DNA of 43,254 nucleotides from Candidatus Bathyarchaeota archaeon (GCA_026394315.1 JAPKYM010000213.1:1-43254); one strand, 5' to 3'. Shown: positions 3,978 through 43,254, counted from the first letter of the stretch. Numbers and translations are program-made. The notes: generated by a model from the sequence alone, not told the origin.

Positions 3978-4275
3978 CGTCCTTTTCAGCCAGTCTCAGT
4001 ATCTCTGAGTCCCCAGTTTCTCTAACTGTAATTGCGGCAACTATAAAGGGTTTCCCGCACAAAGTGCCGAGTTCCATACTCGTTCCCTCATAGATGTAGG
4101 TTGGCACTCCAGAGTTCTGAGCGTCCTTCACTATTTGCTCCTTGTCTGGGCAATTAGAAGCCAAGATTATCAGCCCGGCCCTTCCAAGCTTTGCAGCCGC
4201 AGATGCGTTTCGACTTCCAAGGTCTGTCTTTCCAGTCTTCAAGGTTATGGCGATCTGTTTACTGAAGTCTATCAT
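3958..4275 (-). CDS. rpl30e: 50S ribosomal protein eL30 (L30e)
   Basis: 105 aa with ...LKTGKTDLGSRN...LIILASNCP...ELGTLCGKPFIVAAITV..., matching the archaeal L30e pattern. Its ATG overlaps the rpoA stop (ATGA). Confidence 0.9.
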   Translation of the reverse strand: MIDFSKQIAITLKTGKTDLGSRNASAAAKLGRAGLIILASNCPDKEQIVKDAQNSGVPTYIYEGTSMELGTLCGKPFIVAAITVRETGDSEILRLAEKDDAVTKD

Positions 4276-8102: not shown

Positions 8103-8104
8103 CC

Positions 8105-12032: not shown

Positions 12033-12767
12033 TTGCATCCACTTGAAAGAGCAGGATGGACATGCGGCTTCATTATGCTAATAATCATGATAATCACTTG
12101 GCTGGTAGGCGACATTCCTTTCCAGTGGAAAGCATTGTTTTCAGTCATATCCATTGTCATTATTGGAATTACTGCTTTCTGGAGAAGGATCAGAGGCTTC
12201 AAGCCGCCTAAACTGCTCGTCAAGCGAGCAGAGTTGAGTCCAGAGGAAGAAACGAGGGAAATTCGTGTCCGATTTCGTAATGGTCAAGAGAAGTTACATG
12301 AAGCTCGGTTTTACTTCGTTACAGTTGAGAATGTTGAAGGTAAAAGAATCAAAGGATTGCGACCATGTATTTACCTCCATTATAATATGTTGATCGTGTC
12401 GCCGTACGGCAAGCCCTTAATCAACGTGGATTATCAGGGGCCTCTATGGGAGTTTGAGCAAAAAGGGCTACAAGCTTACCTTGATGCCCTCATGAATGAC
12501 GGAAAGAAAGTAAAGGAGAGCGTTAGCTTTCCTCCAGATAAGAGAGCGTCCGTAACATTTGCCCTTTTCCTCACTTTGAAGGATTTTCCGTGGTTGGATA
12601 TTCCCGCAGACAAAAAACGCTATCACCCTATCCCATCTAAGTTCCGCATCAAGTTAGCCTTTAGGACGGAGGACTTGCTTCCTTACCATGTGGCAACATA
12701 CGAGATAAATGCCCAACAAACGTGGGATAAGATTGGTGTCGAAGAAGTTCAAGTTAAAGAAACTTAG
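12033..12767 (+). CDS. hypothetical membrane protein (two N-terminal TM helices plus a soluble domain); passenger gene
   Basis: 244-aa ORF (TTG start; alternative ATG at 12075). Has hydrophobic segments GFIMLIIMIITWLV and LFSVISIVIIGITAFW. I recognise no family. Confidence 0.55.
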   Translation: MHPLERAGWTCGFIMLIIMIITWLVGDIPFQWKALFSVISIVIIGITAFWRRIRGFKPPKLLVKRAELSPEEETREIRVRFRNGQEKLHEARFYFVTVENVEGKRIKGLRPCIYLHYNMLIVSPYGKPLINVDYQGPLWEFEQKGLQAYLDALMNDGKKVKESVSFPPDKRASVTFALFLTLKDFPWLDIPADKKRYHPIPSKFRIKLAFRTEDLLPYHVATYEINAQQTWDKIGVEEVQVKET

Positions 12768-12974: not shown

Positions 12975-13193
12975 TTGGCTTGCACTATTATCACTTCAAA
13001 ACACGCTTTTGAAAGGCAGGAAGAGAGAGGCATAAGTCCAGATGAGGTTCGCAATGCCATGATGAGAGGTTCGAAACATAAGAATTCAGATGGGACTATG
13101 ACTGCCAAGTATGGATCATGTGAAGTGGTTTATAAGAGTCCACGACAATGGAGACAGTTCGTGATAACTGTCAAAATCGTCTCTGGTGAATGA
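12975..13193 (+). CDS. DUF4258-like small toxin candidate; passenger gene
   Basis: 72 aa, TTG start. The N-terminus ITSKHAFERQEERGISPDEVRNAM fits the DUF4258 pattern (..HA..R..eR.Is..ev...). Its end overlaps the next ORF by 8 nt, a toxin-antitoxin-like arrangement. Confidence 0.55.
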   Translation: MACTIITSKHAFERQEERGISPDEVRNAMMRGSKHKNSDGTMTAKYGSCEVVYKSPRQWRQFVITVKIVSGE

Positions 13194-13563
13194 ACGATAT
13201 GGAAGAGTGCCTATTTGCTCAGGCCGCCTAAAAGAAGCGAAGGTGACCGTGGAGATTTCGGGAGCAAAACTCGGAAGTTTCGATGGTCTACAATGTGAGA
13301 GATGTGGCGAAGAGTTTCTTTTGCCAAAGTCAACGAATGTTGCACATGCGACAGCACTGAGCAAGAATCTTTTTGGTAAGTTGAAGGAACCCGAATCAAT
13401 GTCTACTCTACCACATGAATCACTAGCTTACGAAATTCGATCCGTAGGTACAGTAGTGACTCCCCTAACATCTACGAATGAAATAAGCTTGGCTAATTAT
13501 GAAGTTGAGATATCAACAAGCCTAACGGGTTCCTCTGTTGAGATAACTGCTAAATGCGAGTGA
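13186..13563 (+). CDS. zinc-ribbon (YgiT/MqsA-N-like) antitoxin candidate; passenger gene
   Basis: 125 aa, GTG start. ..PICSGRLKEAKVTVEISGAKLGSFDGLQCERCGEEF.. resembles the YgiT-type zinc-finger layout. The first CxxC is degenerate. Confidence 0.45.
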   Translation: MNERYGRVPICSGRLKEAKVTVEISGAKLGSFDGLQCERCGEEFLLPKSTNVAHATALSKNLFGKLKEPESMSTLPHESLAYEIRSVGTVVTPLTSTNEISLANYEVEISTSLTGSSVEITAKCE

Positions 13564-13578
13564 TGGCCTTTGGCTTCA

Positions 13579-14061
13579 ATGCCGAAAGGCACCGTATCCA
13601 AGGAACGTTTCGTAGATGTTGATTTTGAAGTTGTTAAGGAACCTTGGAACAAGTATCAATTAGATGATAATGCTATTCTCAAAGTCAAACTTGTTCTAAC
13701 TCTACTTCGTAGAAAAGAACTGTTACGACCTGATGGAAGTGTCGAGAAGATTGTCGGCTTTAGTTTTGACAGTCAAAATGTCACCACCGTACAGAGCGTC
13801 CCTGAATCCTTGAAGGGGTCTCCTTCTACAGAGTCCTACGATCCAAAACAACTTGAATCTTCCATAGTCCAAGATGACATTGGCTATACCACACTTGCCG
13901 AGGAATGGAATGAATATCTCGATGAAACTGGAGAAAAAGTTCGAATGAAAACAACTGTAGGCAGAGTGGCAAGAACAAGTAAATTTGACAAGCATGGAAA
14001 TCCTGTGTATCTTGTTTCATCGCATGGAATAGCTGACATAAAGGTTCGAAAACCATCCTAG
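13579..14061 (+). CDS. hypothetical protein; passenger gene
   Basis: ORF tracked from TTG 13570; the in-frame ATG at 13579 is preferred. About 160 aa, soluble, no family recognised. Confidence 0.5.
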   Translation: MPKGTVSKERFVDVDFEVVKEPWNKYQLDDNAILKVKLVLTLLRRKELLRPDGSVEKIVGFSFDSQNVTTVQSVPESLKGSPSTESYDPKQLESSIVQDDIGYTTLAEEWNEYLDETGEKVRMKTTVGRVARTSKFDKHGNPVYLVSSHGIADIKVRKPS

Positions 14062-14272: not shown

Positions 14273-15055
14273 TCATCCTATTAATCTTGCTGATGTTTGG
14301 CCATCAGGGCCAAATTCGAAATCCAAATCAGTAGTCATCTGATGCATGACCAAGTTGGTATGGGCTTGGAGAATCTGAATTCTCAAGTCAATCCTAACCT
14401 TCACGTTTTCCTTGGGATTGGCAAGGACTATTCCCTGTCTTTGGAATGCCAAACTTCTGAGGCCGATCCAGAAAGTCACTTGGGGAACATCCGTGCCTAA
14501 CACCTTCGACTTCTCATCCCAAAGCGGGCTTTCCGAGTTTGTCTGAACATTTGACACCTTTGCAAAGTCTACCAATTTGTACATTCGTCCACTGAGGTTT
14601 ACTGTAGACTCTGCTGTATCCACAATACTGGACTCATAATACACAGGAAATCTGGATGGGGATGATATATTCATAGTGAGTTTGGTAGCTAGCAGAGCTT
14701 CACCATTGAGGTATTGTATTTGGGGTTTCTGCTCAATACTCATCGAAGTGATGTTGGCTATTCCGTGATTTCTAACCTCGCTCAACAACACCTCGGTCTC
14801 CCTCAGGATACTCTTAGCTTCCTCCATTTTTCTGGAGGCGTCAGCGAATACCCTGTTAGCTGCATCTAGTCTTGAAGTCGCCTCGTTGACGAGCACATCC
14901 ATCTCTCTCATATCTTGAGATACCTCAGCCAGCTGCACGTTTGAGTCTTGGGATAGCCTGTAGGCTTGAGAGTATAGATAGCCTGACCATATTGAGATGC
15001 TTAAGGTAACAATAATCGCGAGGGTGACAAAACGTTGTTGGGTCTGAGTTGACAT
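14273..15055 (-). CDS. hypothetical N-terminally membrane-anchored protein with a coiled-coil segment
   Basis: 260 aa. Has a TM segment (FVTLAIIVTLSISIWSGYL), then a heptad-like region (..EVSQDMREMDVLVNEATSRLDAANRVFADASRKMEEAKSILRETEVLLSE..). No family recognised. Confidence 0.55.
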   Translation of the reverse strand: MSTQTQQRFVTLAIIVTLSISIWSGYLYSQAYRLSQDSNVQLAEVSQDMREMDVLVNEATSRLDAANRVFADASRKMEEAKSILRETEVLLSEVRNHGIANITSMSIEQKPQIQYLNGEALLATKLTMNISSPSRFPVYYESSIVDTAESTVNLSGRMYKLVDFAKVSNVQTNSESPLWDEKSKVLGTDVPQVTFWIGLRSLAFQRQGIVLANPKENVKVRIDLRIQILQAHTNLVMHQMTTDLDFEFGPDGQTSARLIG

Positions 15056-15268
15056 TTTGCGCTCTATTAACGTTAGGCTACCTATAATTTATCTTAATAT
15101 ATCGGAACAAGTTACGCGTTTCCATAGACATCTGAGGTCTCATCTGCGAATACAATTATGAAAATTGATTAGCAGATCTCGTTGGGATTGGACGTGCTTT
15201 TGTTGCAGAACAGAACTGCTCTATGAGGGCCATCGTAACTCTAAGAGAACCGAGATCTGAGGAACCGA

Positions 15269-15799
15269 CTAGTCTTTTCTTCTCAGATACAACTTGATAC
15301 CGTGGGACCTTAAGACTTCGACTATCATTGGTTTTGAGATCGCTCTCAGAAGCAGGTGTCCCAATAATCCTATGGCTATTACGCTTCCAACAAGGACTAA
15401 GAGCAATCCAGTTGCTAGGGGTACATTGAATATGTAGCTTAGGTAGCTTCCCACCACAAGGGTAACCGTTAAGATTTCGACCGCCGTGGCGTAAAGCCAG
15501 CTGCCTTTCAGCCTTGTACACCCAATCTTCCAGCCTAGAAGTGTTGCTGTGAAATTTGCTATTGCTCCTCCCAGAATATCGATGATTCCTAACCCACCGA
15601 AGAAATTGGATATGACGGCTCCAAGAGTTACACCCATGATTGCGGGCCATCCGAAGAGTATCGCAAGGGGTAACATAGCGTCGGCGACTCTTACTTGAAA
15701 TATGTTGAAACTTATTGACGTGAGGGAGATTACTGCTGCAGCATACAATGCTGTAAAAGCTGTTGTCAGAGAGAGTTCCTTCATTTTCTCCGAATTCAA
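15269..15799 (-). CDS. queT: QueT-family (queuosine-precursor/ECF S-component-like) membrane transporter
   Basis: 176 aa, polytopic. ..ISFNIFQVRVADAMLPLAILFGWPAIMGVTLGAVISNFFGGLGIIDILGGAIANF.. matches the QueT pattern (..QFRiSEaL....G...N..sp.G..D...G). The overlapping 282-aa ORF at 15156-16004 is judged spurious. Confidence 0.65.
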   Translation of the reverse strand: MNSEKMKELSLTTAFTALYAAAVISLTSISFNIFQVRVADAMLPLAILFGWPAIMGVTLGAVISNFFGGLGIIDILGGAIANFTATLLGWKIGCTRLKGSWLYATAVEILTVTLVVGSYLSYIFNVPLATGLLLVLVGSVIAIGLLGHLLLRAISKPMIVEVLRSHGIKLYLRRKD

Positions 15800-15925
15800 A
15801 GTTGCACTCCGACTCCGTGGTTTCTAGATTGGAACGGGCTGGAAAAACCAGCCGCCACATCTTCGCAGGATTATTGCAAGTTAGATAAGGCTTCTTTTCT
15901 TTGATCCAACCTAATCTTGGATTGT

Positions 15926-16471
15926 TCACTTCTCTTTGAGTTGCTTCACGATACTTTTGAGCTGCCTTTCCCAATCTACAGGCGTCACATTTGGAAATGA
16001 CCAATTGGCGTGGGGTTGATGATATCTCCCGAGGGATATGGTCTTAAGATGAGGCGCGAAGTGTTTGAATCCTGAAAGAGTAACCCATTCCAAATAGTAT
16101 TGGAACCCAATAAGTAAGACAAGATCATACCGTCCTTGGCCGTCAAGCCCTTGCCAGTTAGGATCTCTGAGTCGATTCGAAATATCCATAATAGGCATCC
16201 AAGATGCTCTGTTGAAACCTCGCTGTGTGAATTCACCGATCACATGTGCAGTAGCTACGATCTGAGCTCCTGTCAGTTCTGCTATTTGAATTACGTAGTC
16301 TATAGGCTTTCCCTGTTCCAGATCCACACTGGCAGCTTCATGCCCTACTATTAGTATTGGCCGTTTAGATTTCTTGATCGCCGCAACCACAACTTCAGGC
16401 TTAATGACTGGGAGGGCTCTGGTTAATCCGGAGACCTCTGCAGTCTGCCAAGGCTCAGCTCTCGCTATCAT
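15926..16471 (-). CDS. cdhB: CO dehydrogenase/acetyl-CoA synthase complex, epsilon subunit
   Basis: 181 aa. ..IKPEVVVAAIKKSKRPILIVG.. and the overall size fit CdhB. Its start overlaps the cdhA stop by 4 nt. Confidence 0.8.
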   Translation of the reverse strand: MIARAEPWQTAEVSGLTRALPVIKPEVVVAAIKKSKRPILIVGHEAASVDLEQGKPIDYVIQIAELTGAQIVATAHVIGEFTQRGFNRASWMPIMDISNRLRDPNWQGLDGQGRYDLVLLIGFQYYLEWVTLSGFKHFAPHLKTISLGRYHQPHANWSFPNVTPVDWERQLKSIVKQLKEK

Positions 16472-18822
16472 CTTGATTTCCTCGTCCCGATCATCCTAGG
16501 GAGAAGGGTCGGATCGGGGATGGTGCTTTCTTTCCAGCCTTTATTCTCTAAGATCTTGACTATCTCTTCCTTCATTGTGATCGGGATATCGGTCTCTCTG
16601 CGTACGAGTTGGTGAAGATCATCAGGCATGACTCCGTAGAATTTCTTTTGCATGTCTATGTAATTGGTGAGCTTTATCATACGTCCTTTGCTCGTGTCAT
16701 TGGGTCTCAAACATAGCTTAGCCATCATGACCATTGCCTCTTGCTTTGTCTCTGCCACACAGAATAGATGTTCAGGTGTAGGTCCGACGTTAACTAGACC
16801 GCCGGTACGGGCATCGTAGACGTTCCAGTCATCCTTGATGTCGCTTCTTCCCAGAAGCATTCGCCGATACTTGGATCCATGTGGCCCTACAACAACTGGA
16901 ACCCCTAAACGCCAGAAACCGCTCGCTATGGCTGCTGCTTTTTGTGTTATGGCGCCCCAAGCTAAACCTACAGCACCTACACGGTTGTGAATGTAGTCTG
17001 CTATCTCTTCGTAGTTTGCTCTCAGGGGTCTCTTTGCAAAAATGTTAGCTATCTTAATGGCAGCTCCCGCAATGTGAGCGTTGGAAACGCATGAACCGAC
17101 ATTGACCAAACCTCCAGCTTCAAATGCACCTGGGTAGAGCTCGTATGGAGACTTACCTTCTTCATTCTTCGTCATGGCTATTGACATGGCAGAGCATCCG
17201 GAGGACACCACGATGTATCGGCGTCTTGTGAACTCAGCAGCCATCTCAGCAACTTCCGCTCCTCCATTGGGATAGTTTGCACATCCGACCAGCGCGATCA
17301 CTCCTGGGATTTCACCGAGCACTATGGGAGCGCCGACATTTCGTATTTCTATGTCCTGTATTGCACCTCTTCCAACTCTAATCTTGTATTTCTCTTCCTT
17401 AATCTTCTTCTCAGCTGCTCCTGTAATGAGACTGTGTACACGTATGTGATTCTTGCATGCGCTCTCGCACCGGTCGCAACCGATGCAGACCTCATACAGG
17501 TCTGCAAGTTTGTTTGTGTTGCCGGTGGCTGCCTTGCTAACCGCTTCAGGGATTTGGAGATCGTTGGGACAGGCGCGTCTGCAATCGCTACATTGAGTGC
17601 ATCTCTTTGCCTCTTTCACTATCTCAGCAATACTTGGAAGAACTTTGAATTTGGCTCTCTTTGGAGCTAATTCAACTGCAACTCTGGCGGCAACTTCTCC
17701 GACTTTCTCTGGGTCGAGTATAACTGCTCCCTTTGTACTGCCGCTGACTAGGTCGGCAACAATCTCAGTAGCTGGATCCAAGGTTCTGTTCTTAAGTCCG
17801 AGACAATTCTTTTCTGAGGAAGCGATAACTGGGGTTTTGACTTTCTGAGCTTCTGCCAGTACGTCAGCTCGAATGCATTGCTCGTCGACGACTATGACAT
17901 CTGGTACGCCGCTTCTTATGTATCTCAGTTGCCAAGATATTGGTCCTATGATCTTTGCCTTTGGATTGTACCTAATGAGGTCGTGGGCAGTGCAACAGAT
18001 ACCTGTTATCTCAACCTTGTCGTAGAGGCTTTTCTTGTCAAGGTAGTCCATAATTTCAGCTGCAGGTGGAACGTTATGCCCAATCACCAAGATGACTGGC
18101 TTTGATACGTCAACGGTTCCTAGACCTATTTCGGCCAATGGTGCCTCAGGATCGGCTTTAGGATAACCTAAAGCCGAGAGCTGTGCAATGTCAGCAACTT
18201 CCATACCAACTTGATCGATCATTCCTGCGTGAAATGCTTTGGATTCGAAGTCTAGCTCGTTACCCTCTTGCCCTGTGTGGGTCGCTGCCAAGAGTTGAGT
18301 GATCTGAGTTTCAAGATAGCACAGAACATCTTCCAAATCTCCCAGTGTCCTCGGCCTGATCCCACAGACTAACCTTGTGACTGGCGCCTCAACTTCTATG
18401 CCCACGGATTTCCCCACGTCTATCGGAAGAGTTGAACCGTACTTCTGTATCAGGTGTTCAATTAAGTGCCTGGCGTGGCCCGTGTGTGTCGCAGCACCTA
18501 TGCAGCAGGCCAGCAAGACTATTCTTGATTGCTGAGCAGCCATGTCCAGCCCGCATGCGCCTCTCTTTCCTTGGGTCAAGTCGCATTTGCCCATGGTGCA
18601 CAGGCAGCAAGAATCACAGTAGGGGAGATACATCGGCTTGTACTTGCTGAGGAGTTTCATATCCCATTCTCTGAGCGTCGTCACACTAGGATATGGAGTT
18701 GGGCCCATAGGTTCGGCCCACCCTTCCTCAATGATCTTGCCTATAGATAACTCCAAGCCTTTGACTTCAGTGAGCCCACTCTTGAGCTCTTCCAGTTTCA
18801 GATGAATATCCTTCTTAGGCAT
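16468..18822 (-). CDS. cdhA: CO dehydrogenase/acetyl-CoA synthase complex, alpha subunit (Ni-Fe CODH catalytic subunit)
   Basis: 784 aa. The N-terminal Cys cluster (YLPYCDSCCLCTMGKCDL..GACGLD) and the inserted 2x[4Fe-4S] ferredoxin motifs (CTQCSDCRRACP, CIGCDRCESAC) are characteristic of archaeal CdhA. Confidence 0.9.
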   Translation of the reverse strand: MPKKDIHLKLEELKSGLTEVKGLELSIGKIIEEGWAEPMGPTPYPSVTTLREWDMKLLSKYKPMYLPYCDSCCLCTMGKCDLTQGKRGACGLDMAAQQSRIVLLACCIGAATHTGHARHLIEHLIQKYGSTLPIDVGKSVGIEVEAPVTRLVCGIRPRTLGDLEDVLCYLETQITQLLAATHTGQEGNELDFESKAFHAGMIDQVGMEVADIAQLSALGYPKADPEAPLAEIGLGTVDVSKPVILVIGHNVPPAAEIMDYLDKKSLYDKVEITGICCTAHDLIRYNPKAKIIGPISWQLRYIRSGVPDVIVVDEQCIRADVLAEAQKVKTPVIASSEKNCLGLKNRTLDPATEIVADLVSGSTKGAVILDPEKVGEVAARVAVELAPKRAKFKVLPSIAEIVKEAKRCTQCSDCRRACPNDLQIPEAVSKAATGNTNKLADLYEVCIGCDRCESACKNHIRVHSLITGAAEKKIKEEKYKIRVGRGAIQDIEIRNVGAPIVLGEIPGVIALVGCANYPNGGAEVAEMAAEFTRRRYIVVSSGCSAMSIAMTKNEEGKSPYELYPGAFEAGGLVNVGSCVSNAHIAGAAIKIANIFAKRPLRANYEEIADYIHNRVGAVGLAWGAITQKAAAIASGFWRLGVPVVVGPHGSKYRRMLLGRSDIKDDWNVYDARTGGLVNVGPTPEHLFCVAETKQEAMVMMAKLCLRPNDTSKGRMIKLTNYIDMQKKFYGVMPDDLHQLVRRETDIPITMKEEIVKILENKGWKESTIPDPTLLPRMIGTRKSR

Positions 18823-27045: not shown

Positions 27046-27596
27046 GACAGTAAGCGGGTTATTTCTATTAGATCTATTGTTTGGGTGACCTACTCGAACG
27101 ACCCCCTCTCTCTGGAGACAGATTTCAATTCTCAGCCCCAATAGCGCGCGCTGACTTGCCAAGCCTGACATGACCTGACTCGAACTCATTAAACGATCAC
27201 TATCACACATGAATAGGTCTAGAACACCAACAACAAGAGCCTAAACCCCTACCCCCTGACAAGCGATAATATGCTAAGTCTGCAAGCACAAGCACACGCC
27301 GAGACAGTGCCAATGAGCCCATGCCCAGAGAGCACGCACACGGCGCACCCCTACCCAAACAAGTCGCACCTACACGCTCAGTCTTTTCTTGAGCCTCATT
27401 CACGAGATCCGCGTTTGTAGCGCGTGCTATACACCGTCTGACTAGATCGACTGGCCCCAGAATTTGGACTTCCACAAACGACTTCGATTGTTTTAGCGCA
27501 CGGTCTCTAGTTCTTGACCATTTGATCCAAGTAGACTCTTATGGCCCACATTTTTATTCTCAGAGCAAGAGAGATAGAACTGAGAAGTGCCAAGCA

Positions 27597-28412
27597 ATGA
27601 TCGATGACGTTAGCGTTTGCATAGTCGGAGCCGGTAAAATGGGTGAGGCTCTAATACATGGTCTAATCTCAAAGAAGGCAATCGCACCAAGCAGACTTTT
27701 TGCGGTTGACACGCTATTAGATCGATGTGAATATGTCTCAAAGAAATATGGAATAGTATGCGATACTGATGTAACCAAGCTAGCTCTCAACTCCAACGTA
27801 ATTATTATTGCTGTGAAACCGAATGATGTAGAAAGAGTTGCCGACAAGCTCAGAACACTCTTAACGTCAAAACAGCTTGTCATCACAATAGTTGCAAGGA
27901 TCTCTTCAGAATTTCTATCCAAGATTCTTGGCGGTGAAATTCCTGTGATTCGGGCTATGCCAAACATAGCTGTACTTGTAGGTGAGGGCATGATAGCCAT
28001 TTCACGAGGCCCAAATAGCTCAACCGAACACATCGCCTTGGCCGAAGAGATTTTCAGTTCAACTGGCAAAGTCGCCATCGTAGATGAGAAAGATCTAGAC
28101 GCGGTCACAGCGCTTAGTGCAAGCGGTCCGGCTTACATCTTCATGATAATAGAGGCCTTAAGCGACGGTGGAGTTACAGTTGGATTGGAAAGAGACATCT
28201 CGACTCTTTTGGCGACTCAGACAACCCTGGGAGCCGCCAAGATGATTCTTGAAACGAGGGAACATCCAGCTAAACTAAGAGATATGGTTACTACTCCTGG
28301 CGGCACTACCGTTGAAGGTTTACTAGAGCTCGAGAAGAAAAAGGTGCGTGCAGCTCTTATTGAAGCCGTAATCAAGGCGACTGAGAAGTCTCGGGGGCAA
28401 CTAACGAAATAG
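27597..28412 (+). CDS. proC: pyrroline-5-carboxylate reductase family protein
   Basis: Rossmann N-terminus VCIVGAGKMGEAL. Also ..IRAMPNIAVLVGEG.., ..GPAYIFMIIEALSDGGV.. and ..TTPGGTTVEGL... The ATG at 27597 is preferred because an A/T box (tttttatt, 27551-27558) lies about 40 nt upstream. The tracked TTG/ATG at 27522 would precede that box. Confidence 0.85.
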   Translation: MIDDVSVCIVGAGKMGEALIHGLISKKAIAPSRLFAVDTLLDRCEYVSKKYGIVCDTDVTKLALNSNVIIIAVKPNDVERVADKLRTLLTSKQLVITIVARISSEFLSKILGGEIPVIRAMPNIAVLVGEGMIAISRGPNSSTEHIALAEEIFSSTGKVAIVDEKDLDAVTALSASGPAYIFMIIEALSDGGVTVGLERDISTLLATQTTLGAAKMILETREHPAKLRDMVTTPGGTTVEGLLELEKKKVRAALIEAVIKATEKSRGQLTK

Positions 28413-28431
28413 AAGATAGAACTGAAAAGAA

Positions 28432-29859
28432 ATGGAAAAGATTGGCATACTAGTGGTCAGTTACGGATCAAGGGACTCAGCAATTATCGATGCTCTAGCT
28501 CGAAGTGAAGAATACGTACCAGAGCTCTATATTGCTGATAAACAGAATAATCCTTTCAACCTCGAGAAAGCGAGTTGCGGCGGGGCGCACGCTGTTATCC
28601 CAGAACTCTCAATTGAGAAAATCTGCGACTTCGCCGAAAGGCATAGGAACAGAATTCGCTTTGGCATAGTCGGCTCCGAAGGCCCGATAATCCAAGGGAT
28701 TAGAGACCTGATTGAAAAAAGGATAAAAATACCAATTATCTGCCCCACAAAGCGGTATGCTATTGAAGGAAGTAAAGTCCGTCAACGTAACATGCTTCAA
28801 CTGTGCTCCCCCAAATCAAATCCCCTTTTCAAGGTCTTTGATCCGGTTGACTTAGGGCCCGACCCAAAGACTCAGTTCAAAGATTGGTTGCTCGAACTCG
28901 GGGGCCCAGAAAATGCAGTCATAAAACCGGATAGACCTGGCTTCGGCAAAGGTGTCGGCGTTGGTGGTGAACACTTCAATTCAGTTGAGGAGGCGTACAA
29001 CCACTTCTGGTCAATCTACGGAGGCAATTCTGAGAGAGTCGTAATTGAACAGAAGATAGAAGGCGAGGAATCGAGCTACCAAGCTTTCTGTGATGGAAAA
29101 CATCTGATCACTCTTCCCGAAACACGTGACTACAAGAGGGCTTTCCAAGATGACTACGGACCTAACACAGGCGGAATGGGTTCCTATAAGGGCGAAAATG
29201 AGCTCCTTCCTTTCATGAAACCCTCAGACAGAGAAGAAGAAATCAAGATAGTCAACAACATCTTTAGACATCTTGCTGAGGGCGGAAATAATCCTGAGTT
29301 GAGAGGAATTCCTTTCTATGTAGCATTCATGCACTCTGCTAACGGACCCAAGATCCTAGAGATAAACAGTCGACCTGGAGATCCAGAGATAATAAACATC
29401 CTGCCAATAATTAACCAAGATTTTGTCGAACTCTGCTTGAACATGATTGATCAAGAGCTTTATTCAGTGAAATTCAAGCCCGTATCAAGCGTCGTGACCT
29501 ATAAGGTTCCTCCAGCCTACGGCGGATATGCACAGCAGTTCCCCAGTGAGGTGAGTAGAGAAGAAGTTGGGGCACCTCTTAACCTACAAGACGGATATGA
29601 ATTTGCACATAGGAATTCTGACAATTTAAGACTCTATCCAGGCTCCATGGAACTTAGGTCTGATGGCAAGATCTACTCGCTCTCATCCAGAACCATCTGC
29701 TCAGTTGGAATAGCAGGGACAACAGATGAAGCTAGGAAATTCTCACTATTGGGCATAGAAAAGATACATGGAGGAGGACTATGGTACCGAAGCGACATAG
29801 CCTCGAGGAAACACATCAACAGAAGTATTGAGCACATGAATCGGTTGAGGTCTAAGTGA
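28432..29859 (+). CDS. divergent PurD (phosphoribosylamine--glycine ligase) family ATP-grasp ligase
   Basis: 475 aa. Keeps ..IVGSEGPIIQGIRD.., ..AIEGSKV.., ..GKGVGV.., ..DDYGPNTGGMGSY.. and ..LEINSRPGDPE... The N-terminal loop is SYGSRDSA where PurD has GSGGREHA. The protein is about 40 aa longer than typical PurD. Confidence 0.7.
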   Translation: MEKIGILVVSYGSRDSAIIDALARSEEYVPELYIADKQNNPFNLEKASCGGAHAVIPELSIEKICDFAERHRNRIRFGIVGSEGPIIQGIRDLIEKRIKIPIICPTKRYAIEGSKVRQRNMLQLCSPKSNPLFKVFDPVDLGPDPKTQFKDWLLELGGPENAVIKPDRPGFGKGVGVGGEHFNSVEEAYNHFWSIYGGNSERVVIEQKIEGEESSYQAFCDGKHLITLPETRDYKRAFQDDYGPNTGGMGSYKGENELLPFMKPSDREEEIKIVNNIFRHLAEGGNNPELRGIPFYVAFMHSANGPKILEINSRPGDPEIINILPIINQDFVELCLNMIDQELYSVKFKPVSSVVTYKVPPAYGGYAQQFPSEVSREEVGAPLNLQDGYEFAHRNSDNLRLYPGSMELRSDGKIYSLSSRTICSVGIAGTTDEARKFSLLGIEKIHGGGLWYRSDIASRKHINRSIEHMNRLRSK

Positions 29860-30935
29860 GCAGGATCTTCATAACGGACTGTGAAGGCCCAATCTCAAAA
29901 AACGACAACGCATTTGAACTATTGGAGAGACTGATCCCAGATGGAGCTAGGCTTTTCTCACTAATCAGCAAATATGACGATATTCAAGTCGAAATCGTGA
30001 GGAGGCAGCACTATAAACCTGGAGATACGTTAAGACTCATACTTCCATTCCTCAAAGCATACGGCGCAACAGATGCGCTCTTCAGGAGTATCTCAGAAGA
30101 GACCCTTAGGCTTGTTCCAGGGGCGCGAGAGACCTTAGGCTTGGTCAGCAAAGTTATGCCTTCTTTCATAGTGAGCACTAGCTACGAGCATTACATTGAA
30201 TCCTTATGCCAACTCATAGGATTTCCCAAGAGTAATACTTACTCGACGAAGCTTAATCTAGATTCCTTCAAGATTCCAGACTGGGAAATTGAAAGAGTCA
30301 AAACGTGGGCTGACAAGCTAACCAAGCTCTCGCCGCCAAGAATACCTCCCAAAGCACGTTCTATTCAGGACTTTGACAAACAAGATCGAGAAAACATAGA
30401 ATTCCTCGATCAGATCATCTGGCACGAAATACATGGAATGACCATTGGCAGAATCATTACAATCGTTAAACCTGTTGGCGGAGCAGAGAAAGTTGAAGCA
30501 GTTAAGGACATACTCCGAAGACACAACAGTGATCTTAAACAGACAGTCTACTTCGGCGATAGTATAACTGACTCTGAACCACTCAAGTACGTTAGAGAGG
30601 GTGAAGGCCTCGCCGTATCCTTCAACGGCAACGAATACGCAATAAGGCAAGCTGAGCTGGCAATTCTGTCAGGTGATACCCTGGCTACAACTATTATTGC
30701 TTTGATCTTCAACAAAGGAGGAAAAGAAGCTGTGAGGCAACTTGTTGCCAGTTGGGATTACGACCAAATTGAGAAGACTTTGGGAACACAGCTTAGAATA
30801 AAGGCAGAAGAGGTCTACCACGCAGGTCTACCACAAGTCGAAATAGTTGCGGAGAACAACATAGAAAGATTGACAAAAGAGAGTTCCCTTTTCAGAAAGC
30901 AAGTTAGAGGAGAGGCTATAGGCAGTCTTGGATAA
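29856..30935 (+). CDS. HAD-superfamily-like protein of unknown function (resembles proteins annotated EhaR in methanogens, from memory)
   Basis: 359 aa. HAD motif I-like FITDCEGP (second Asp replaced by Glu) and motif IV-like YFGDSITDSEP. The GTG start overlaps the preceding stop (GTGA). Confidence 0.55.
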   Translation: MSRIFITDCEGPISKNDNAFELLERLIPDGARLFSLISKYDDIQVEIVRRQHYKPGDTLRLILPFLKAYGATDALFRSISEETLRLVPGARETLGLVSKVMPSFIVSTSYEHYIESLCQLIGFPKSNTYSTKLNLDSFKIPDWEIERVKTWADKLTKLSPPRIPPKARSIQDFDKQDRENIEFLDQIIWHEIHGMTIGRIITIVKPVGGAEKVEAVKDILRRHNSDLKQTVYFGDSITDSEPLKYVREGEGLAVSFNGNEYAIRQAELAILSGDTLATTIIALIFNKGGKEAVRQLVASWDYDQIEKTLGTQLRIKAEEVYHAGLPQVEIVAENNIERLTKESSLFRKQVRGEAIGSLG

Positions 30936-30958
30936 TTGAGCAATATGGTGGCAATATC

Positions 30959-31867
30959 ATGGGAATTGAGAAAGTAGAAGGTACTTATGCAGAAGCCTTT
31001 GAGGGCATCTTTGCCAGGCTAATTATCACTTCTGATGATGAAGAGACTCTGAAGGCTGCTGCTGAGGACTCAACAAGTACGCCATCTATTGTAATCGGCA
31101 GAGTCGAGGGAGGTTATGAGAAGCGAATCAAGCATAGTGAGACTCCTGATGGCCGCAATGGTGTGATCGTTCAGTTTTGGGGCGGCATAGACTCGTCAAA
31201 GCCGCTACAGGATTCCGTCAAAAGGTTCGAGATCGAGCTTTCTTACAGAATAAGGCAGGACATACTTGTAAAACCCTTCACAGCAGTATACAATGCCCTC
31301 AACGGCGCGGTAGGACAGATCGATACCATGGAAAGGATCGGCCATTGTGGTGATGGCTTCGAATGGGAGGAGGACCTCAAAGGTAGAAGAATCATAAACG
31401 TCCCAATAATGGTGCCTGACTTCCGCATTGAAAGATATCTCGGCTATGGCTTGGGCGTTATGGGAGGCAACTTCTGGTACATGTGCAAAACCAAGAAAGC
31501 TGTCTTTGAAGCCGGAAGAAGAGCCTTAGAGGCAATTCACCAAATAGATGGTGCGGTAACACCATTCGATATTTGCTCAGCAGGTTCCAAACCAGAGACA
31601 AAGTTCCCATGGATTGGCCCCACAACCAATGAAGCATATTGCCCCTCACTTAGGGATAAGCTCGGAACACGCTCAAAGATCCCTGAAGGAGTCGAATACA
31701 TTCCAGAAATCGTCATAAACGGCGTCTCACTCGCAGTAGTATCTGAAGCCATGAGAGCAGGCATAGAGAGCATATGGGATCTACCTGAAGTTTCTTGGAT
31801 ATCTGCTGGAAACTACGGTGGAAAACTCGGTAGATACCGAGTGCGTCTAAAGGAGCTATTTGGTTGA
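30959..31867 (+). CDS. Ftr-family paralog (formylmethanofuran:H4MPT formyltransferase-like, second copy in the window)
   Basis: 302 aa. N-terminus VEGTYAEAFEGIFARLIITS, and C-terminus ..AYCPSLRDKLG..SKIPEGVEYIPEIVINGVSL...ISAGNYGGKLG. Both parallel the Ftr at 2548-3459, but the middle is clearly divergent. Confidence 0.8.
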   Translation: MGIEKVEGTYAEAFEGIFARLIITSDDEETLKAAAEDSTSTPSIVIGRVEGGYEKRIKHSETPDGRNGVIVQFWGGIDSSKPLQDSVKRFEIELSYRIRQDILVKPFTAVYNALNGAVGQIDTMERIGHCGDGFEWEEDLKGRRIINVPIMVPDFRIERYLGYGLGVMGGNFWYMCKTKKAVFEAGRRALEAIHQIDGAVTPFDICSAGSKPETKFPWIGPTTNEAYCPSLRDKLGTRSKIPEGVEYIPEIVINGVSLAVVSEAMRAGIESIWDLPEVSWISAGNYGGKLGRYRVRLKELFG

Positions 31868-32766
31868 GACCAGACATTGTAGGTTTCGGAGCGCTTAATC
31901 TTGACAAACTCTACAGAGTAAGTAGGATAGCTGAAGCTGGGGACGAAACTTTCGTAAAAGGCTTAACCATCTCACCTGGAGGTTCAGCTGCAAACACAGT
32001 AGTGGGTTTGTCTCGTCTAGGAGTGCGAACAGGATACATCGGCAAGTTGGCCAGAGATATCGAAGGAGACTACCTTCTAAAGGATCTTCAGAGAGAAAAA
32101 GTGGAAATAAGCGGGATCAAACACTCTAAGCATGGAAGGACCGGTGTTTGCATAGGTTTCATAGACGACCTCGGCGAAAGAGTACTCTACATCGACCCCG
32201 GCGTCAACGACTCCTTGAAATTTGACGAGATAAGGCTTGAATATGCAGACTCATCAAAATTCCTTCATCTTACATCCTTTGTTGGTGGGGCTCCCTTTGA
32301 CGCACAGAAGCGATTGGTCAGGAATCTACGAAGAGCAGAAATTTGCTTAGATCCTGGTGAACTGTATTCAAAGAAAGGAATCAGCGTTCTTAGTCCTCTC
32401 CTGAAAAGGACACTAGCCATCTTGCCAAATGAAAAAGAGATCAGAGCGCTTACAAAGAGGGGGTACAAAGAAGGTTCACGAACTCTTCTTTCCCTGGGAG
32501 TAGAACTCGTCGCAGTAAAACTGGGCAAAAGAGGATGCTACGTTACTGATGCAAAAGAGAGCCACTTGATTCCGGCGTCCAAAATTGCACCAAAGGACAC
32601 GACAGGAGCCGGTGACGCATTCTGTGCTGGATTCATCTACGGATTACTACATGGTAAGGATCTCTACGCTTGCGGAAAGCTGGGAAATCTTGTAGCCTCA
32701 CGATGTATAGAAGAGTACGGAGCCAGAACAGGATTACCATTATTGGCCGATCTACCGCGAATCTGA
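31864..32766 (+). CDS. PfkB-family carbohydrate/ribokinase-like kinase
   Basis: 300 aa. ..GGSAANTVVGLSRLG.. and the PfkB signature ..DTTGAGDAFCAGF... The TTG start overlaps the preceding stop (TTGA). Confidence 0.85.
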   Translation: MRPDIVGFGALNLDKLYRVSRIAEAGDETFVKGLTISPGGSAANTVVGLSRLGVRTGYIGKLARDIEGDYLLKDLQREKVEISGIKHSKHGRTGVCIGFIDDLGERVLYIDPGVNDSLKFDEIRLEYADSSKFLHLTSFVGGAPFDAQKRLVRNLRRAEICLDPGELYSKKGISVLSPLLKRTLAILPNEKEIRALTKRGYKEGSRTLLSLGVELVAVKLGKRGCYVTDAKESHLIPASKIAPKDTTGAGDAFCAGFIYGLLHGKDLYACGKLGNLVASRCIEEYGARTGLPLLADLPRI

Positions 32767-40429: not shown

Positions 40430-40932
40430 TACTACTGCCTCTGTTTGGGATATCTGGAGAGTGATCTTTGTTTAAAAGAATAGACAATTCATTCGAGTAT
40501 AGTACACTTTCTTTGAGTTGGTGTTCTTGACAGGGTTAATGCATGCTAGGTGGGTGTTAAACTGGTTCGACTACATAGAGTGTAATTGTGTAACACATAG
40601 GAACATTTATACGGGTGACTCGTATATCCTATGGGTTGAGGATGAGCGAGATGAAAAACGCTGGCGTCTTATGCGCGCTCTTTAGCTCACCACAGAGCAA
40701 ACTCATACTACAACAAGAAGAACGAGAACAACCTCTATACTTTCTGAAGATACCCGGGCAAATCAAGCCGTAATCTTCTCCCTCCTCTTTTTTCTTTTCT
40801 CCTATTGGGGCCCTCACGGGCCCAATAATAAAACCAGACCACGTCATCGACCAATATTCATTAGGCTCAAATATGGCGCTACGTAACTTCGTTGTGGAGT
40901 AAGGCTCCAGGTGCTGTCAAACGGTTCCAGAT

Positions 40933-41294
40933 GTGGAACTAGACGATTCTAACACTACTTTTGCGACTGTAAAGAGTTTGATCGAGAAGTTCATCCAAGA
41001 TAGAGATTGGAAAAGATTCCATACGCCAAGAAACCTCGCTGAATCTATCAGTATAGAGTCCGCGGAGCTGCTGGAAATATTTCAATGGATCACCACAGAC
41101 GAAGCCCATCTTATGAAGAATGCTGCCAATTTTGAAAGATTACAAGAAGAACTTGCAGACATCTGATCTATTGCATAAGCATGTTTAATGCGATAGGAAC
41201 AGACATCGTGAAGGCGCTTGTAGATAAGATTCAGAAGAATGAGACGAAGTATCCCTCTGAAGTTTCCAAAGGAACTTACTCAAAAATGGGCTGA
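40933..41294 (+). pseudogene. MazG-like nucleoside triphosphate pyrophosphohydrolase (small all-alpha type), interrupted by a frameshift at about 41161-41163
   Basis: The tracked ORF ends ...FERLQEELADI*. One base further, the next frame continues LIYCISMFNAIGTDIVKALVDKIQKNETKYPSEV...*, ending at TGA 41292-41294. Joined, this reproduces the MazG-family core EELADvLIYc...lgiD...al..Ki.kNe.KYP. Confidence 0.7.
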
Positions 41295-41657
41295 AGTGGG
41301 CATGATATCTGGCGAGATAAATAGGAATCATGTACTATCGGCACTAGATGAAATAAAGAAAAGTGGAGCGCGCGCTCTCTAGCCGGTAGACGATTTAAAT
41401 ACCTAGAACCCCACCGACACCTCAAAGAAAAGCGAGAAACGAAAAAGCCTATTTCAAGCCTGAACCAGAGAAACAGTAACATATTTGAGACCCCTGGCGG
41501 GGGTTTCAATCGCTCTATGGTAGAATTGATCATCACCGAATCAATCATAAAATGACTGCCACGTGAAACCCTAAACCTCTAAACCAAACAGCCACAAGGC
41601 AGTTCCACGTACCCAAACCCAAAACACGTGGAACCCAAAAAACAACCACTATGTAAT

Positions 41658-41749
41658 ATCCCCCCTAGCTGGTGAGAGCACCCTAATTTGAACCGTTAAG
41701 ACAGGTTATTTTTGTGTGTGTGTGTGTGCTCACCAGCTAGGGTGGGGAT
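41658..41749. repeat. long imperfect palindrome/hairpin: ATCCCCCCTAGCTGGTGAG ... CTCACCAGCTAGGGTGGGGAT, with a 52-nt loop
   Basis: The 14-bp perfect core CCCTAGCTGGTGAG (41663-41676) pairs with CTCACCAGCTAGGG (41729-41742). The stem is extended by ATCCCC/GGGGAT across a 2-nt bulge. Confidence 0.85.
41713..41728. repeat. (TG)8 dinucleotide microsatellite inside the palindrome loop
   Basis: Reads tgtgtgtgtgtgtgtg directly, preceded by ttattttt. Confidence 0.95.
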
Positions 41750-42104
41750 GTAGATAACTGGCTGTTTGGTGTGGCCACGTGGATACGGGTTTTCCGACGT
41801 GGACATCCACGTGTAACTCCAAACCCTTTCTTCAATTTCCCATATCTTGATGAAAGCATCAGAGCACGCTATCTGCGAATATCAAGAAAAAAATGGGTGT
41901 TTGAAAGCTGTCCGGTGATTAGGGTGCAGTCCAGACAGCAATAGCAGTGGCTACCCCATATTCACTCCAGACGCATAGTGAATACCATCCCTATCTAACA
42001 CTCTCGGCATAGTACTCTCCTTGGCGAGCCGCAGGTGGGCCTGACAGGTTTGTTTGAGCCATAGCTAGTGAGCAAACAATAGACTGTGAGGAAGCCGCAG
42101 CTAA

Positions 42105-43254
42105 CTAATATAGTTCATTCCTTTTTGAGATGTGGTTGAGTCGTCTCTTGTAAGCAGCCCTGAGTGTCAGTAGCGGCATTACGGCATAGATTGTTGTCGA
42201 TGAAACCGCGGCAAATAGAAATGCGGCAACAGATGCAAACGTCGAGTTGATAGGTGACGACATTGTGTATGTGTATGCGGTAAGATGGATTGTTCCAACA
42301 AGCGGTAACAAGAGAACTCTGAAGAGTGGTTTGGTAACATCGTGAGCATGAATAAACTCTGCGATTGGTGGCGACCACAAGTAATAGAAAGTATTCCACC
42401 CGTTTACCAGTAGTCTTCCAACTTCATTTGAACCTATCATCCCGTCTCTAACGTGTTGCATATAGGCGATTTCAGGAGCCAATTCACTTCCATAAGCGGC
42501 GGTAGCTATGACACAACCGTAATGCGGCTTCGACGTAGGCGTTGACGTAGGTTCAGGTGTGGCAGTTGGTGTAGAGTTCGTCGTAGGTGTCGGTGTCAGG
42601 GAGGGCATAGGTGTACTTGTTGGCTCAGAGACAGGTTCGTAGGTTATGCTGACGTCATCCCAGAATGCCCCCATTGGAACAGATGTGAGTCTCTGAAATG
42701 TCACTGCCAGTAATGTTATTGATACTCTCTCAACTGAGGCGACTGTAATGTTCGGGTAGGTCTGCTTGAGATCCGCATCAATGTTGCGTTTAACATGATT
42801 CCATTTATCGGATGCTAAATCAGAGAGCAGGATGTTCTTGACATTCTCTGAGGTCATCTTTGGCAATGGATAATCTCTGTAGACAGCGATGTTTTCTGTC
42901 CACGCGACGTAGTACACTATGGTCTTCTTGGTCTGTGTTGTCCAGAAATCAACGATTAATGCAATATCAACCCATGCGTTTACTTGAGATGTACCGAATA
43001 AGTAGACGTTGAATTGAAGCGTCAAATTAGATCTTCGATTCAATTGGATCTCTTGAGTGGCGCCCCCTCCAACGCCATAACAGTGCTCTCCTCCAGTACC
43101 GCTGAGTGTGTAGAGAGAATACCTTCCAGAATATGCGCGATAGTCTGTGGCTGCTCCTTCCCGAGGAAGCTGGTTACAATAGCTGAAGCCGCTCCATCCA
43201 TTCATCCCATTCTCAAAGCCACCATTCGCTACAAGCTCAACGACTTCACATCTT
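42105..43254 (-). CDS. surface protein, partial (N-terminus beyond the window end): CBM-like domain, Pro/Thr linker, CVIATAAYGS motif and C-terminal membrane domain
   Basis: The frame stays open upstream of the tracked ATG (43205) to the window edge (..VELVANGGFENGMNGWSGF.., an NGGFE..W start typical of carbohydrate-binding-module-like domains). Has a linker EPTSTPMPSLTPTPTTNSTPTATPEPTSTPTS, then GCVIATAAYGSELAPEI (CFI-box-like, from memory) and several TM helices. Confidence 0.6.
   Translation of the reverse strand, partial: RCEVVELVANGGFENGMNGWSGFSYCNQLPREGAATDYRAYSGRYSLYTLSGTGGEHCYGVGGGATQEIQLNRRSNLTLQFNVYLFGTSQVNAWVDIALIVDFWTTQTKKTIVYYVAWTENIAVYRDYPLPKMTSENVKNILLSDLASDKWNHVKRNIDADLKQTYPNITVASVERVSITLLAVTFQRLTSVPMGAFWDDVSITYEPVSEPTSTPMPSLTPTPTTNSTPTATPEPTSTPTSKPHYGCVIATAAYGSELAPEIAYMQHVRDGMIGSNEVGRLLVNGWNTFYYLWSPPIAEFIHAHDVTKPLFRVLLLPLVGTIHLTAYTYTMSSPINSTFASVAAFLFAAVSSTTIYAVMPLLTLRAAYKRRLNHISKRNELY

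Follow-up and report, generated by a model that had tools for sequence, protein, structure and literature searches.

The 43,254-nucleotide stretch of DNA from a Candidatus Bathyarchaeota archaeon analyzed here (GCA_026394315.1 JAPKYM010000213.1:1-43254; the whole stretch is called the window below) encodes, one after the other on its plus strand, a divergent PurD protein, an EhaR-like protein of the haloacid dehalogenase (HAD) superfamily, a paralog of formylmethanofuran:tetrahydromethanopterin (H4MPT) formyltransferase named Ftr2, and a PfkB-family kinase. These four genes are best read as one conserved unit that belongs to de novo purine biosynthesis, and the last three are the leading candidate for a missing archaeal step, the formylation of glycinamide ribonucleotide (GAR) to formylglycinamide ribonucleotide (FGAR). 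Since 2011 at the latest, the lack of a known GAR formyltransferase has been recognised as a gap in the purine biosynthesis of Methanobacteria, Archaeoglobi and Methanopyrus and later also of the anaerobic methanotrophic archaea (ANME) of group 1, and since 1999 the proteins EhaR, EhaS and EhaT have been listed without explanation as "hydrogenase subunits". A single hypothesis addresses both puzzles. If it is true, archaea would hold a third, non-homologous solution for a universal metabolic step, and the anabolic withdrawal of one-carbon (C1) units would be tied directly to formyl groups bound to methanofuran (MFR) or H4MPT. The linkage of these genes to the Eha hydrogenase would then also have a rationale, and annotations would be corrected for hundreds to thousands of archaeal genes now called Ftr, ribokinase, HAD hydrolase or EhaR.

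A four-gene core in purine gene clusters

A sequence-only reading of the window had described five tightly coupled plus-strand genes as a candidate pathway, and the arrangement itself is borne out. ORFs (open reading frames) lie at 27597-28412 (proC; the frame opens at 27522), 28432-29859 (PurD-like), 29856-30935 (EhaR-like), 30959-31867 (Ftr2) and 31864-32766 (PfkB). Read directly from the sequence, the TAG stop of proC (28410-28412) is followed after 19 nt by the ATG of the PurD-like gene at 28432, whose TGA stop is overlapped by the GTG start of the EhaR-like gene in GTGA (29856-29859). The TAA stop of the latter (30933-30935) and the ATG of Ftr2 at 30959 are separated by 23 nt, and in TTGA (31864-31867) the TTG start of the PfkB gene lies over the TGA stop of Ftr2. 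The five family assignments hold in profile searches, and the motifs that had been pointed out (SYGSRDSA, DDYGPNTGGMGSY, EINSRPGDPE, FITDCEGP, YFGDSITDSEP, DTTGAGDAF and ISAGNYGGKLG) are all present in the translations.

Conserved co-occurrence, which the sequence-only reading had named as its own test, is pronounced. A scan of one genome per GTDB species, using an alignment of EhaR homologs (A2) as query, returned at least 549 relatives; the best 80 of these loci, from 80 species that are almost all Bathyarchaeia, form our reference set and were annotated by tblastn with the proteins of the window and the purine enzymes of locus L002. Counts are given as loci with a feature over loci with room for it. 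The conserved order is PurD-like, EhaR, Ftr2, PfkB, with purF and purQ-purL-purS-purM(-purP) as the usual flanks: PurD-like is found directly upstream of EhaR in 66/71 loci, Ftr2 downstream of EhaR in 60/74 (53 adjacent, 7 near) and PfkB directly 3' of Ftr2 in 53/68, while purF precedes EhaR or PurD-like in 40/65 and purL follows in 28/56. Start and stop codons overlap by 4 nt between PurD-like and EhaR in 56 of 67 loci and between Ftr2 and PfkB in 55 of 56, and gene order is kept across species whose proteins are only 45-70% identical. On a metagenomic contig of 2.23 Mb, purF, PurD-like, EhaR, two inserted genes, Ftr2 and PfkB stand in that order and are followed by a convergent purQ-purL-purS-purM, an FMN reductase gene and purP, the last of which is found in several of these clusters. 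Because the same core and the same 4-nt overlaps recur in dozens of species, the arrangement is far beyond chance. No Ftr1-type gene was found in the 80 reference loci.

The PurD-like protein (28432-29859) is most likely the GAR synthetase (phosphoribosylamine-glycine ligase) of these organisms, a view based on family membership, conserved motifs and synteny with purF. Its three GARS domains occur in order, GARS_N with 40.5 bits (cutoff 29.5), GARS_A with 112 bits (cutoff 27) and GARS_C with 26.9 bits, below its cutoff of 34.8 and aligned to model positions 28-92; TIGR00877 is matched over model positions 3-423 of 425 with 222.6 bits, below the equivalog cutoff of 288. Solved PurDs align with the protein in the N, A and C domains alike, and it keeps the PurD hallmarks EGSK, GKGV, EE..GEE.S, D.KR, GPNTGGMG.Y, N.R.GDPE and the C-terminal YR.DI. 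The N-terminal G-x-G-G-R-E-H-A loop is replaced by SYGSRDSA in the window and by SYG[SA]R[ED]xA across the subfamily, its stand-alone gene in Altiarchaeota included, with Arg and Ala kept. At the PS00184 site (R-[LF]-G-D-P-E-x-[EQIM], per PMC3261824) the window has R-P-G-D-P-E-I-I; Pro replaces Leu/Phe, five of the six fixed positions as well as the Asp are unchanged, and NSRPGDPE is present in 69 of 73 family members. Both it and the EhaR-like protein belong to large, well-conserved families, with members at 50-70% identity in Bathyarchaeia, Ca. Njordarchaeum and Altiarchaeota. Its association with purine genes is seen in these relatives rather than within the window itself.

This context bears on the proposal, made by the sequence-only reading, of an independent pathway that mimics purine steps. 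The product of such a pathway would not be a purine but, for instance, an N-formyl-glycyl-ribosyl compound or the precursor of a cofactor; the PurD-like enzyme would act on something other than phosphoribosylamine (PRA), and canonical purD with purT or purN would lie elsewhere in the genome. The divergence of the PurD-like protein in score and in its subfamily-wide loop is what this proposal would predict, yet every catalytic PurD motif and each of the three domains is conserved, and the subfamily occurs alone in Altiarchaeota, as a housekeeping purD would. The textbook pathway calls for neither a phosphatase nor a kinase, EhaR-like domains are fused to an unrelated ATP-grasp ligase in non-purine contexts, and modules in which a PurN-like protein accompanies EhaR and PfkB (see below) are not beside purine genes. 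In the relatives of the window, however, the core sits between purF and purQLS-purM(-purP) with no other PurD in the cluster, and it is precisely the reaction between those of PurD and PurL that lacks an assigned enzyme. We regard the separate pathway as quite unlikely. The opposite possibility, that the ATP-grasp protein carries out ordinary purine synthesis next to unrelated genes, had been named as the outcome that would overturn the pathway proposal; here the first half fits, as the protein is most likely the real PurD of the lineage, but its neighbours are not unrelated and travel with the purine cluster.

Ftr2 and a PurN-like protein in the same slot

Ftr2 (30959-31867, plus strand), our candidate GAR formyltransferase, combines an FTR domain (140.5 bits) with an FTR_C domain (183 bits). 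It passes the subfamily model NF002554 (328.3 bits, cutoff 297) and falls below TIGR03119 (230.4 bits, cutoff 292.6), which places it outside the equivalog-level clade of characterised Ftr1/FhcD proteins, and it is 33-41% identical to solved Ftr and FhcD. Canonical Ftr1 is encoded apart from it in the window (2548-3459, minus strand). The two paralogs had been thought to share only their termini, which is wrong, as they align from end to end with 32% identity (E 3e-43). The catalytic Glu of Ftr2 is E250 in YIPEIVINGV, aligned to the Glu of VYEIVINGL; it also aligns with the Glu of M. kandleri Ftr, where the catalytic residue is Glu245. This position is conserved in 63/63 Ftr2 and 5/5 Ftr1/FhcD sequences; in FhcD it is Glu252 (PMC6926001). 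While 72 other positions are conserved in both groups, 25 are fixed differently, each being conserved within the 63 Ftr2 and within the 5 Ftr1/FhcD sequences. Profile searches matched Ftr2 to FTR families only, with no homology to PurN or PurT; our claim is framed accordingly as Ftr2 working like these enzymes, and not as its membership of either family. A single-sequence AlphaFold2 model of Ftr2 was discarded (predicted local distance difference test, pLDDT, 32). Components of the H4MPT-type Wood-Ljungdahl machinery that would make the formyl donor, namely canonical Ftr1, CdhA and CdhB, are encoded in the window.

Published phyletic patterns connect this paralog to the gap in the purine pathway. 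Neither purN nor purT was identified in two Archaeoglobi, four Methanobacteria and M. kandleri, in all of which the rest of the purine pathway is complete (Brown et al., 2011, PMC3261824), and ANME-1 likewise lacks PurN and PurT (Chadwick et al., 2022, PMC9012536). Purine prototrophy has been proven for M. thermautotrophicus (PMC3261824), and a GAR-formylating enzyme must therefore exist. An uncharacterised "Ftr2" clade has been described in ANME-1, ANME-2a/b, Archaeoglobales, M. kandleri and Methanothermobacter (PMC9012536), and every group named in these two studies as lacking PurN and PurT has Ftr2.

A second formyltransferase occupies the place of Ftr2 in other archaea. EhaR again adjoins PfkB in two Methanomassiliicoccales genomes, and in the Methanomassiliicoccales locus L064 a 274-aa protein of the Formyl_trans_N family is encoded between the two. 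This PurN-like protein keeps the catalytic Asn-x-His and Asp of PurN and is orthologous to the N-terminal domain of a natural PurN-like::EhaR fusion (P0315). A metagenome scan with it returned at least 553 relatives, and among 80 annotated PurN-like loci the PurN-like gene is followed directly by EhaR in 46 of the 57 with room, PfkB often lying upstream or downstream. The best curated match of every tested member is PurN, with 32-68 bits against a cutoff of 150, and judged from these sequences the proteins form a separate subfamily. Two unrelated formyltransferase folds hence alternate in one slot beside the same two partners, EhaR and PfkB, as would be expected if non-orthologous displacement had taken place inside a single functional module. 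Other recurring neighbours of the PurN-like modules were considered as functional partners and rejected, since they are housekeeping genes and reflect lineage synteny.

These observations also bear on a looser association, in which ordinary enzymes would stand near purine genes for co-regulation only and an unrelated enzyme would formylate GAR. Ftr2 would then be a second Wood-Ljungdahl Ftr isoenzyme, as its passing of the NCBIfam Ftr subfamily cutoff and its catalytic Glu would allow, although 25 of its positions are fixed differently from Ftr1/FhcD and Ftr1 is the more highly transcribed copy in ANME with transcriptomes (PMC9012536). PfkB, which best matches ribokinase and ribose-1-phosphate kinases, would feed phosphoribosyl pyrophosphate, and a supply of ribose phosphate is relevant to purine synthesis. 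EhaR, with phosphoserine phosphatases as its nearest folds among characterised enzymes, would be a generic sugar-phosphate or phosphoserine phosphatase. Mere co-regulation sits poorly with the near-invariant overlap of Ftr2 and PfkB and with a gene order conserved at 45-70% protein identity, and it is at odds with the replacement of Ftr2 by a PurN-like protein beside the same partners and with the PurN-like::EhaR fusion. We consider this explanation very unlikely.

The three genes downstream of PurD have counterparts in methanogens. The sequence-only reading had pointed to a similar set at the end of the eha hydrogenase operon, and this is confirmed for EhaS, which is Ftr-like, and EhaT, which is ribokinase-like (PMC3087415). 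For the HAD-like protein, the identity as EhaR is confirmed by its homologs of 50-97% identity, which the Joint Genome Institute (JGI) names "energy-converting hydrogenase A subunit R" (a KEGG-Orthology-based name). On the basis of family and order, the HAD/Ftr/PfkB trio is the EhaR/EhaS/EhaT trio. The genes for EhaS and EhaT are co-transcribed with ehaA-R in M. thermautotrophicus (Kaster et al., 2011, PMC3087415), and this, along with the KEGG/JGI name, favours the conclusion drawn for Methanothermobacter that the three proteins are accessory subunits of an energy-converting hydrogenase. For the lineage studied here that conclusion is already contradicted: as the sequence-only reading had remarked, the set stands without hydrogenase genes, and neither hydrogenase nor Eha membrane-subunit genes are present in the 43-kb window; no hydrogenase gene occurs among the reference-probe matches in the 80 Bathyarchaeia loci or the 80 PurN-like loci; and no EhaR gene within an eha operon was met in the window or the loci examined. 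The trio moreover belongs to soluble enzyme families with intact catalytic motifs, and we give the hydrogenase explanation almost no weight here. In the literature accessible without journal subscription, we found no link of Ftr2 or EhaS to GAR formylation and no function for EhaR, EhaS or EhaT.

EhaR, the kinase and a possible route to FGAR

EhaR (29856-30935, plus strand) has a HAD subfamily IB-like fold, of which profiles detect only the C-terminal HAD motifs, and in a library of 1.8 billion proteins its family divides into 626 clusters at 50% identity. The HAD motifs, invariant in alignments A2 and A4, are D8-x-E10, with Glu for the usual second Asp, an S/T motif at 107-109, K212 and GDSITD at 234-239. 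Main-group members carry motif I DxEGP in 82/82 and GDSITD in 80/82 sequences, along with an invariant Lys. The AlphaFold2 model has a pLDDT of 92.5, and Foldseek places it closest to AF1437 (1y8a; template modelling scores 0.79/0.90), followed by SerB, ThrH and 5'-nucleotidase III. EhaR is likely to act as a phosphatase or phosphotransferase and to partner the formyltransferase. Its invariant C-terminal tail (...VRGEAIGSLG), the last six residues of which (354-359) are predicted to be disordered (pLDDT below 50), suggests a partner-binding element.

A distant EhaR subgroup without the Asp nucleophile occurs on contigs that resemble gut, rumen and fermenter Methanomassiliicoccales. In these loci (L095-L124 and L151, proteins P0332-P0384; from gut, rumen, termite and fermenter, Methanoplasma/Methanomassiliicoccaceae by name) motif I has degenerated to GCRGF, SCWGF, NCHGF, SDVGF and similar variants; EhaR is still encoded 3' of the PurN-like gene, and PfkB is not nearby. 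Such proteins may be pseudo-enzymes that persist because of a structural role. In PurN-like loci flanked on each side by 1.2 kb of sequence or more, which represent about three clades, PfkB accompanies an intact motif I in 14/14 and a degenerate one in 0/18, while the adjacency of formyltransferase and EhaR persists in both groups. The former indicates that the catalytic competence of EhaR and the kinase belong together, and the latter that EhaR also has a catalysis-free role.

The EhaR family is not exclusively linked to purines, because EhaR-like domains are fused elsewhere to an unrelated ATP-grasp ligase. Two such fusions (P0298 and P0313) were at first taken as "PurT-like + EhaR"; this was rejected, as the PurT similarity amounts to only 33 bits over ~35 residues and the fusions belong to a separate, non-purine cassette. 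The cassette encodes a winged helix-turn-helix protein of ~105 aa, a protein of ~150 aa, an ATP-grasp ligase of ~560 aa and an EhaR-like protein, the last two being fused into 900-970 aa on several contigs (L085 9209-12913, L086 3313-7017, L087 9215-12895 and L088 7141-10787). It neighbours restriction-modification, DNA methylase, SIR2, UvrD and ThiF/ubiquitin-like genes and has no match among the defence systems of PADLOC. Matches of EhaR residues 145-220 to transcription activator-like (TAL) effectors in the PDB (E values to 1e-13) were dismissed as an artefact, given that VKPVGGAEKVEAV of EhaR resembles the TAL repeat core and summed repeat scores gave zero significant stretches. One EhaR homolog of 55% identity (P0142), on a contig of 10.9 kb, is labelled "[Eubacterium] cellulosolvens" in NCBI; this contig is probably archaeal and was mis-assigned to a bacterial assembly.

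The PfkB-family kinase (31864-32766, plus strand), EhaT-like and ribokinase-like, is coupled translationally to Ftr2. It matches PF00294 with 162.9 bits and carries the GAGD catalytic/anion-hole motif (DTTGAGDAF). All 25 specific models listed for it score below their cutoffs, the best being TIGR02152 (144 bits, cutoff 299.65). The top specific models are ribokinase and ribose-1-phosphate kinases, and among solved structures the protein is closest to generic sugar kinases and ribokinases.

Taken together, gene context, displacement by a PurN-like protein and the published phyletic patterns lead us to favour, by a modest degree of confidence, a reading in which Ftr2, with EhaR and PfkB, performs GAR formylation using MFR- or H4MPT-bound formyl. 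The PurD-like enzyme would join PRA and glycine at the expense of ATP to give GAR; Ftr2 would then formylate the glycinamide amine, with formyl-MFR or N5-formyl-H4MPT as donor, yielding FGAR, the substrate of PurL. In this way Ftr2 would replace PurN or PurT where the C1 carrier is H4MPT and not folate. EhaR and PfkB could work in tandem, as phosphatase and kinase, on the ribose phosphate of the intermediates, and EhaR might in addition be a physical partner of the formyltransferase. The core chemical idea of the sequence-only reading, a ligation of the GAR synthetase type followed by MFR/H4MPT-type formyl transfer in place of PurN or PurT, is consequently supported. Its gene identities, the tight coupling and the homology to EhaR/S/T also stand; the separate pathway, the inclusion of proC and a reduction step, for which we see no support, do not.

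How phosphatase and kinase would take part can be put more concretely, if tentatively. EhaR would dephosphorylate GAR, the riboside would be formylated, and PfkB would re-phosphorylate the product to FGAR with the expense of one ATP. This is the simplest match to the gene order PurD, EhaR, Ftr2, PfkB, and we hold it to be possible but doubtful. Extended to archaea at large, the scheme becomes a widespread three-protein machine, composed of a formyltransferase of either fold, EhaR and PfkB, that formylates at the riboside level (GAR to glycinamide riboside to formylglycinamide riboside to FGAR); Ftr2 would take formyl from MFR or H4MPT, and the divergent PurN-like enzyme from folate. We rate this general version as unlikely. 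If it were true, the riboside route would place a previously unknown detour of dephosphorylation and re-phosphorylation inside the universal purine pathway, and it would account for the co-transcription, in methanogens, of ehaR/S/T with the genes of the anaplerotic Eha hydrogenase.

The formyl donors are energetically plausible. Hydrolysis of formyl-methylofuran (formyl-MYFR) yields -22.9 kJ/mol, and transfer of formyl from H4MPT to MYFR costs +4.4 kJ/mol (PMC6926001). Since formyl-MFR and FGAR are both N-alkyl formamides, transfer between them should be near equilibrium, with PurL pulling the reaction forward. Eha reportedly (work of Lie et al. from 2012) supplies reduced ferredoxin for the anaplerotic synthesis of formyl-MFR; if so, co-transcription of ehaR/S/T with eha would make sense because Eha would replenish the formyl-MFR that is drained into purines.

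A different use of the same donors is conceivable. HAD enzymes often hydrolyse acyl phosphates, and Ftr2 and EhaR might together release formate or formyl phosphate for PurP and PurT-like ligases, in analogy to the FhcD/FhcA formyltransferase/hydrolase of methylotrophs. It is true that FhcD, an Ftr homolog, works in a formate-releasing complex (PMC6926001), that purP is present in several of the clusters and that archaea using PurT and PurP lack PurU as a source of formate (Brown et al., PMC3261824). The module nevertheless contains no FhcA-like amidohydrolase, and a provisioning role would leave the GAR formyltransferase still missing and both the kinase and the PurN-like replacement unexplained, as enzymes of the PurN type transfer formyl to an amine. 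We judge C1-donor provisioning to be highly improbable.

Several points weigh against GAR formylation by Ftr2, EhaR and PfkB. The reference loci come from nearly a single class, Bathyarchaeia, so that the counts obtained from them are not independent events, and the same applies to the contrast in PfkB between intact and degenerate motif I. The PurN-like modules are not near purine genes. Complementarity with PurN is one-sided, as ANME-2a and ANME-2b have both Ftr2 and PurN (PMC9012536), and our own observation that no PurN-type gene lies within 10 kb on either side of the 80 reference loci comes from a survey without a PurT probe and confined to these neighbourhoods. Methanopterin-bound formyl was not believed to be a formyl donor in purine synthesis, and labelling data in Methanobacteria are inconsistent (Brown et al., PMC3261824). 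For orthology between the window's Ftr2 and EhaS of methanogens, the basis is a common gene order together with published trees. Finally, because formylation of GAR as such requires no phosphatase or kinase, the conserved trio is a hint that some compound other than GAR may be the true acceptor.

Neighbouring genes and comparison with known systems

The gene proC (27597-28412, plus strand), with P5CR_dimer and F420_oxidored domains, encodes a pyrroline-5-carboxylate reductase that matches TIGR00112 with 271.4 bits and thereby exceeds the curated equivalog cutoff of 196.75. The sequence-only reading had counted it as a member of the module; it lies upstream in only 6/65 loci, all close relatives of the window's lineage, compared with 40/65 for purF, and is probably an ordinary proline-synthesis gene, a lineage-specific neighbour in the usual slot of purF. 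The closest relatives (L005-L011 and L169/L170) have the proC version of the cluster and further synteny upstream. The start of proC is ambiguous: the ORF opens with TTG at 27522, and the ATG at 27597 is plausible given an A/T-rich box, ATTTTTATT (27550-27558, plus strand), read from the sequence 39-47 nt 5' of this ATG. The box is a possible archaeal TATA element of the transcription unit and stands at the end of ~550 nt (27046-27596) without credible ORF, Rfam match or repeats. Scans for Rfam families, tRNAs, tandem repeats and bacterial promoters or terminators returned nothing relevant, the bacterial models being of a kind that does not score archaeal promoters. In L169/L170, a gene of the 5-formyltetrahydrofolate cyclo-ligase family (PF01812; 17819-18565, minus strand) lies ~3.5 kb downstream of the module and is a possible further link to formyl-C1 metabolism; no such gene is found at the equivalent place in the window.

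The window is a segment of archaeal chromosome and carries genes for rpoB, rpoA, L30e, NusA, canonical Ftr1, S12, ferredoxin, superoxide dismutase and nrdD. It also holds the alpha and epsilon genes of carbon monoxide dehydrogenase/acetyl-CoA synthase (CODH/ACS), sulfur-transport and TusA genes, the gene for ATP synthase subunit F, and pyrB/pyrI, and it contains no tRNA gene or Rfam match. A single ORF of 1319 aa (4272-8231, minus strand) carries RNA polymerase Rpb1 domains 1-5; the largest subunit of archaeal RNA polymerase is usually split into A' and A'' genes, and this ORF may be a fused rpoA. A stretch of 1.7 kb (40430-42104) that separates nrdD from an unannotated gene of 366 aa contains no ORF of at least 100 aa and no Rfam, tRNA or tandem-repeat match. 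Six ORFs of 125-366 aa have no Pfam match (12033-12767, 13186-13563, 13570-14061, 14273-15055, 15156-16004 and 42105-43205), and two of these adjoin the CODH/ACS epsilon and alpha genes (15926-18822).

Each protein of the core resembles a known system and departs from it. The PurD-like protein shares the three-domain ATP-grasp architecture and all hallmark motifs with canonical PurD (E. coli 1GSO, A. aeolicus 2YW2 and G. kaustophilus 2YRW), from which it differs by its SYGSRDSA loop in place of GxGGREHA, by its sub-cutoff score and by translational coupling to EhaR. The closest solved structure to the EhaR model is AF1437 of Archaeoglobus fulgidus (1Y8A), a structural genomics entry without assigned function that shares 26% identity with EhaR (phmmer E 1.6e-30). 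Ftr2 is homologous over its full length to Ftr (1FTR, 2FHJ, 1M5H and 1M5S) and FhcD (6S6Y), with the catalytic Glu, the N-terminal T.AEAF and the C-terminal AGNYGGKLG motifs conserved. Unlike these enzymes, it belongs to a separate paralog clade (the "Ftr2" of Chadwick et al., 2022), and in the loci examined it is always accompanied by EhaR/PfkB and never adjoins C1-pathway genes.

As a set, the trio corresponds to EhaR/S/T of Methanothermobacter, which are encoded by the last genes of the eha operon and represent the same three families in the same order. There, the published view regards them as hydrogenase subunits of unknown role (Tersteegen and Hedderich, 1999; PMC3087415), whereas in the window and in at least 60 Bathyarchaeia species (probe matches) hydrogenase genes are absent and the trio follows PurD within purine clusters. 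The proposed reaction from GAR to FGAR, in the slot between PurD and PurL, is that of PurN (EC 2.1.2.2) and PurT (EC 6.3.1.21), and the equivalent slot beside EhaR/PfkB is held in other archaea by a divergent PurN-like protein. In contrast to PurN, Ftr2 is unrelated in fold and would use MFR- or H4MPT-bound formyl. Furthermore, the folate-dependent PurN and the formate/ATP-dependent PurT act alone, while the module in the window keeps a HAD protein and a kinase.

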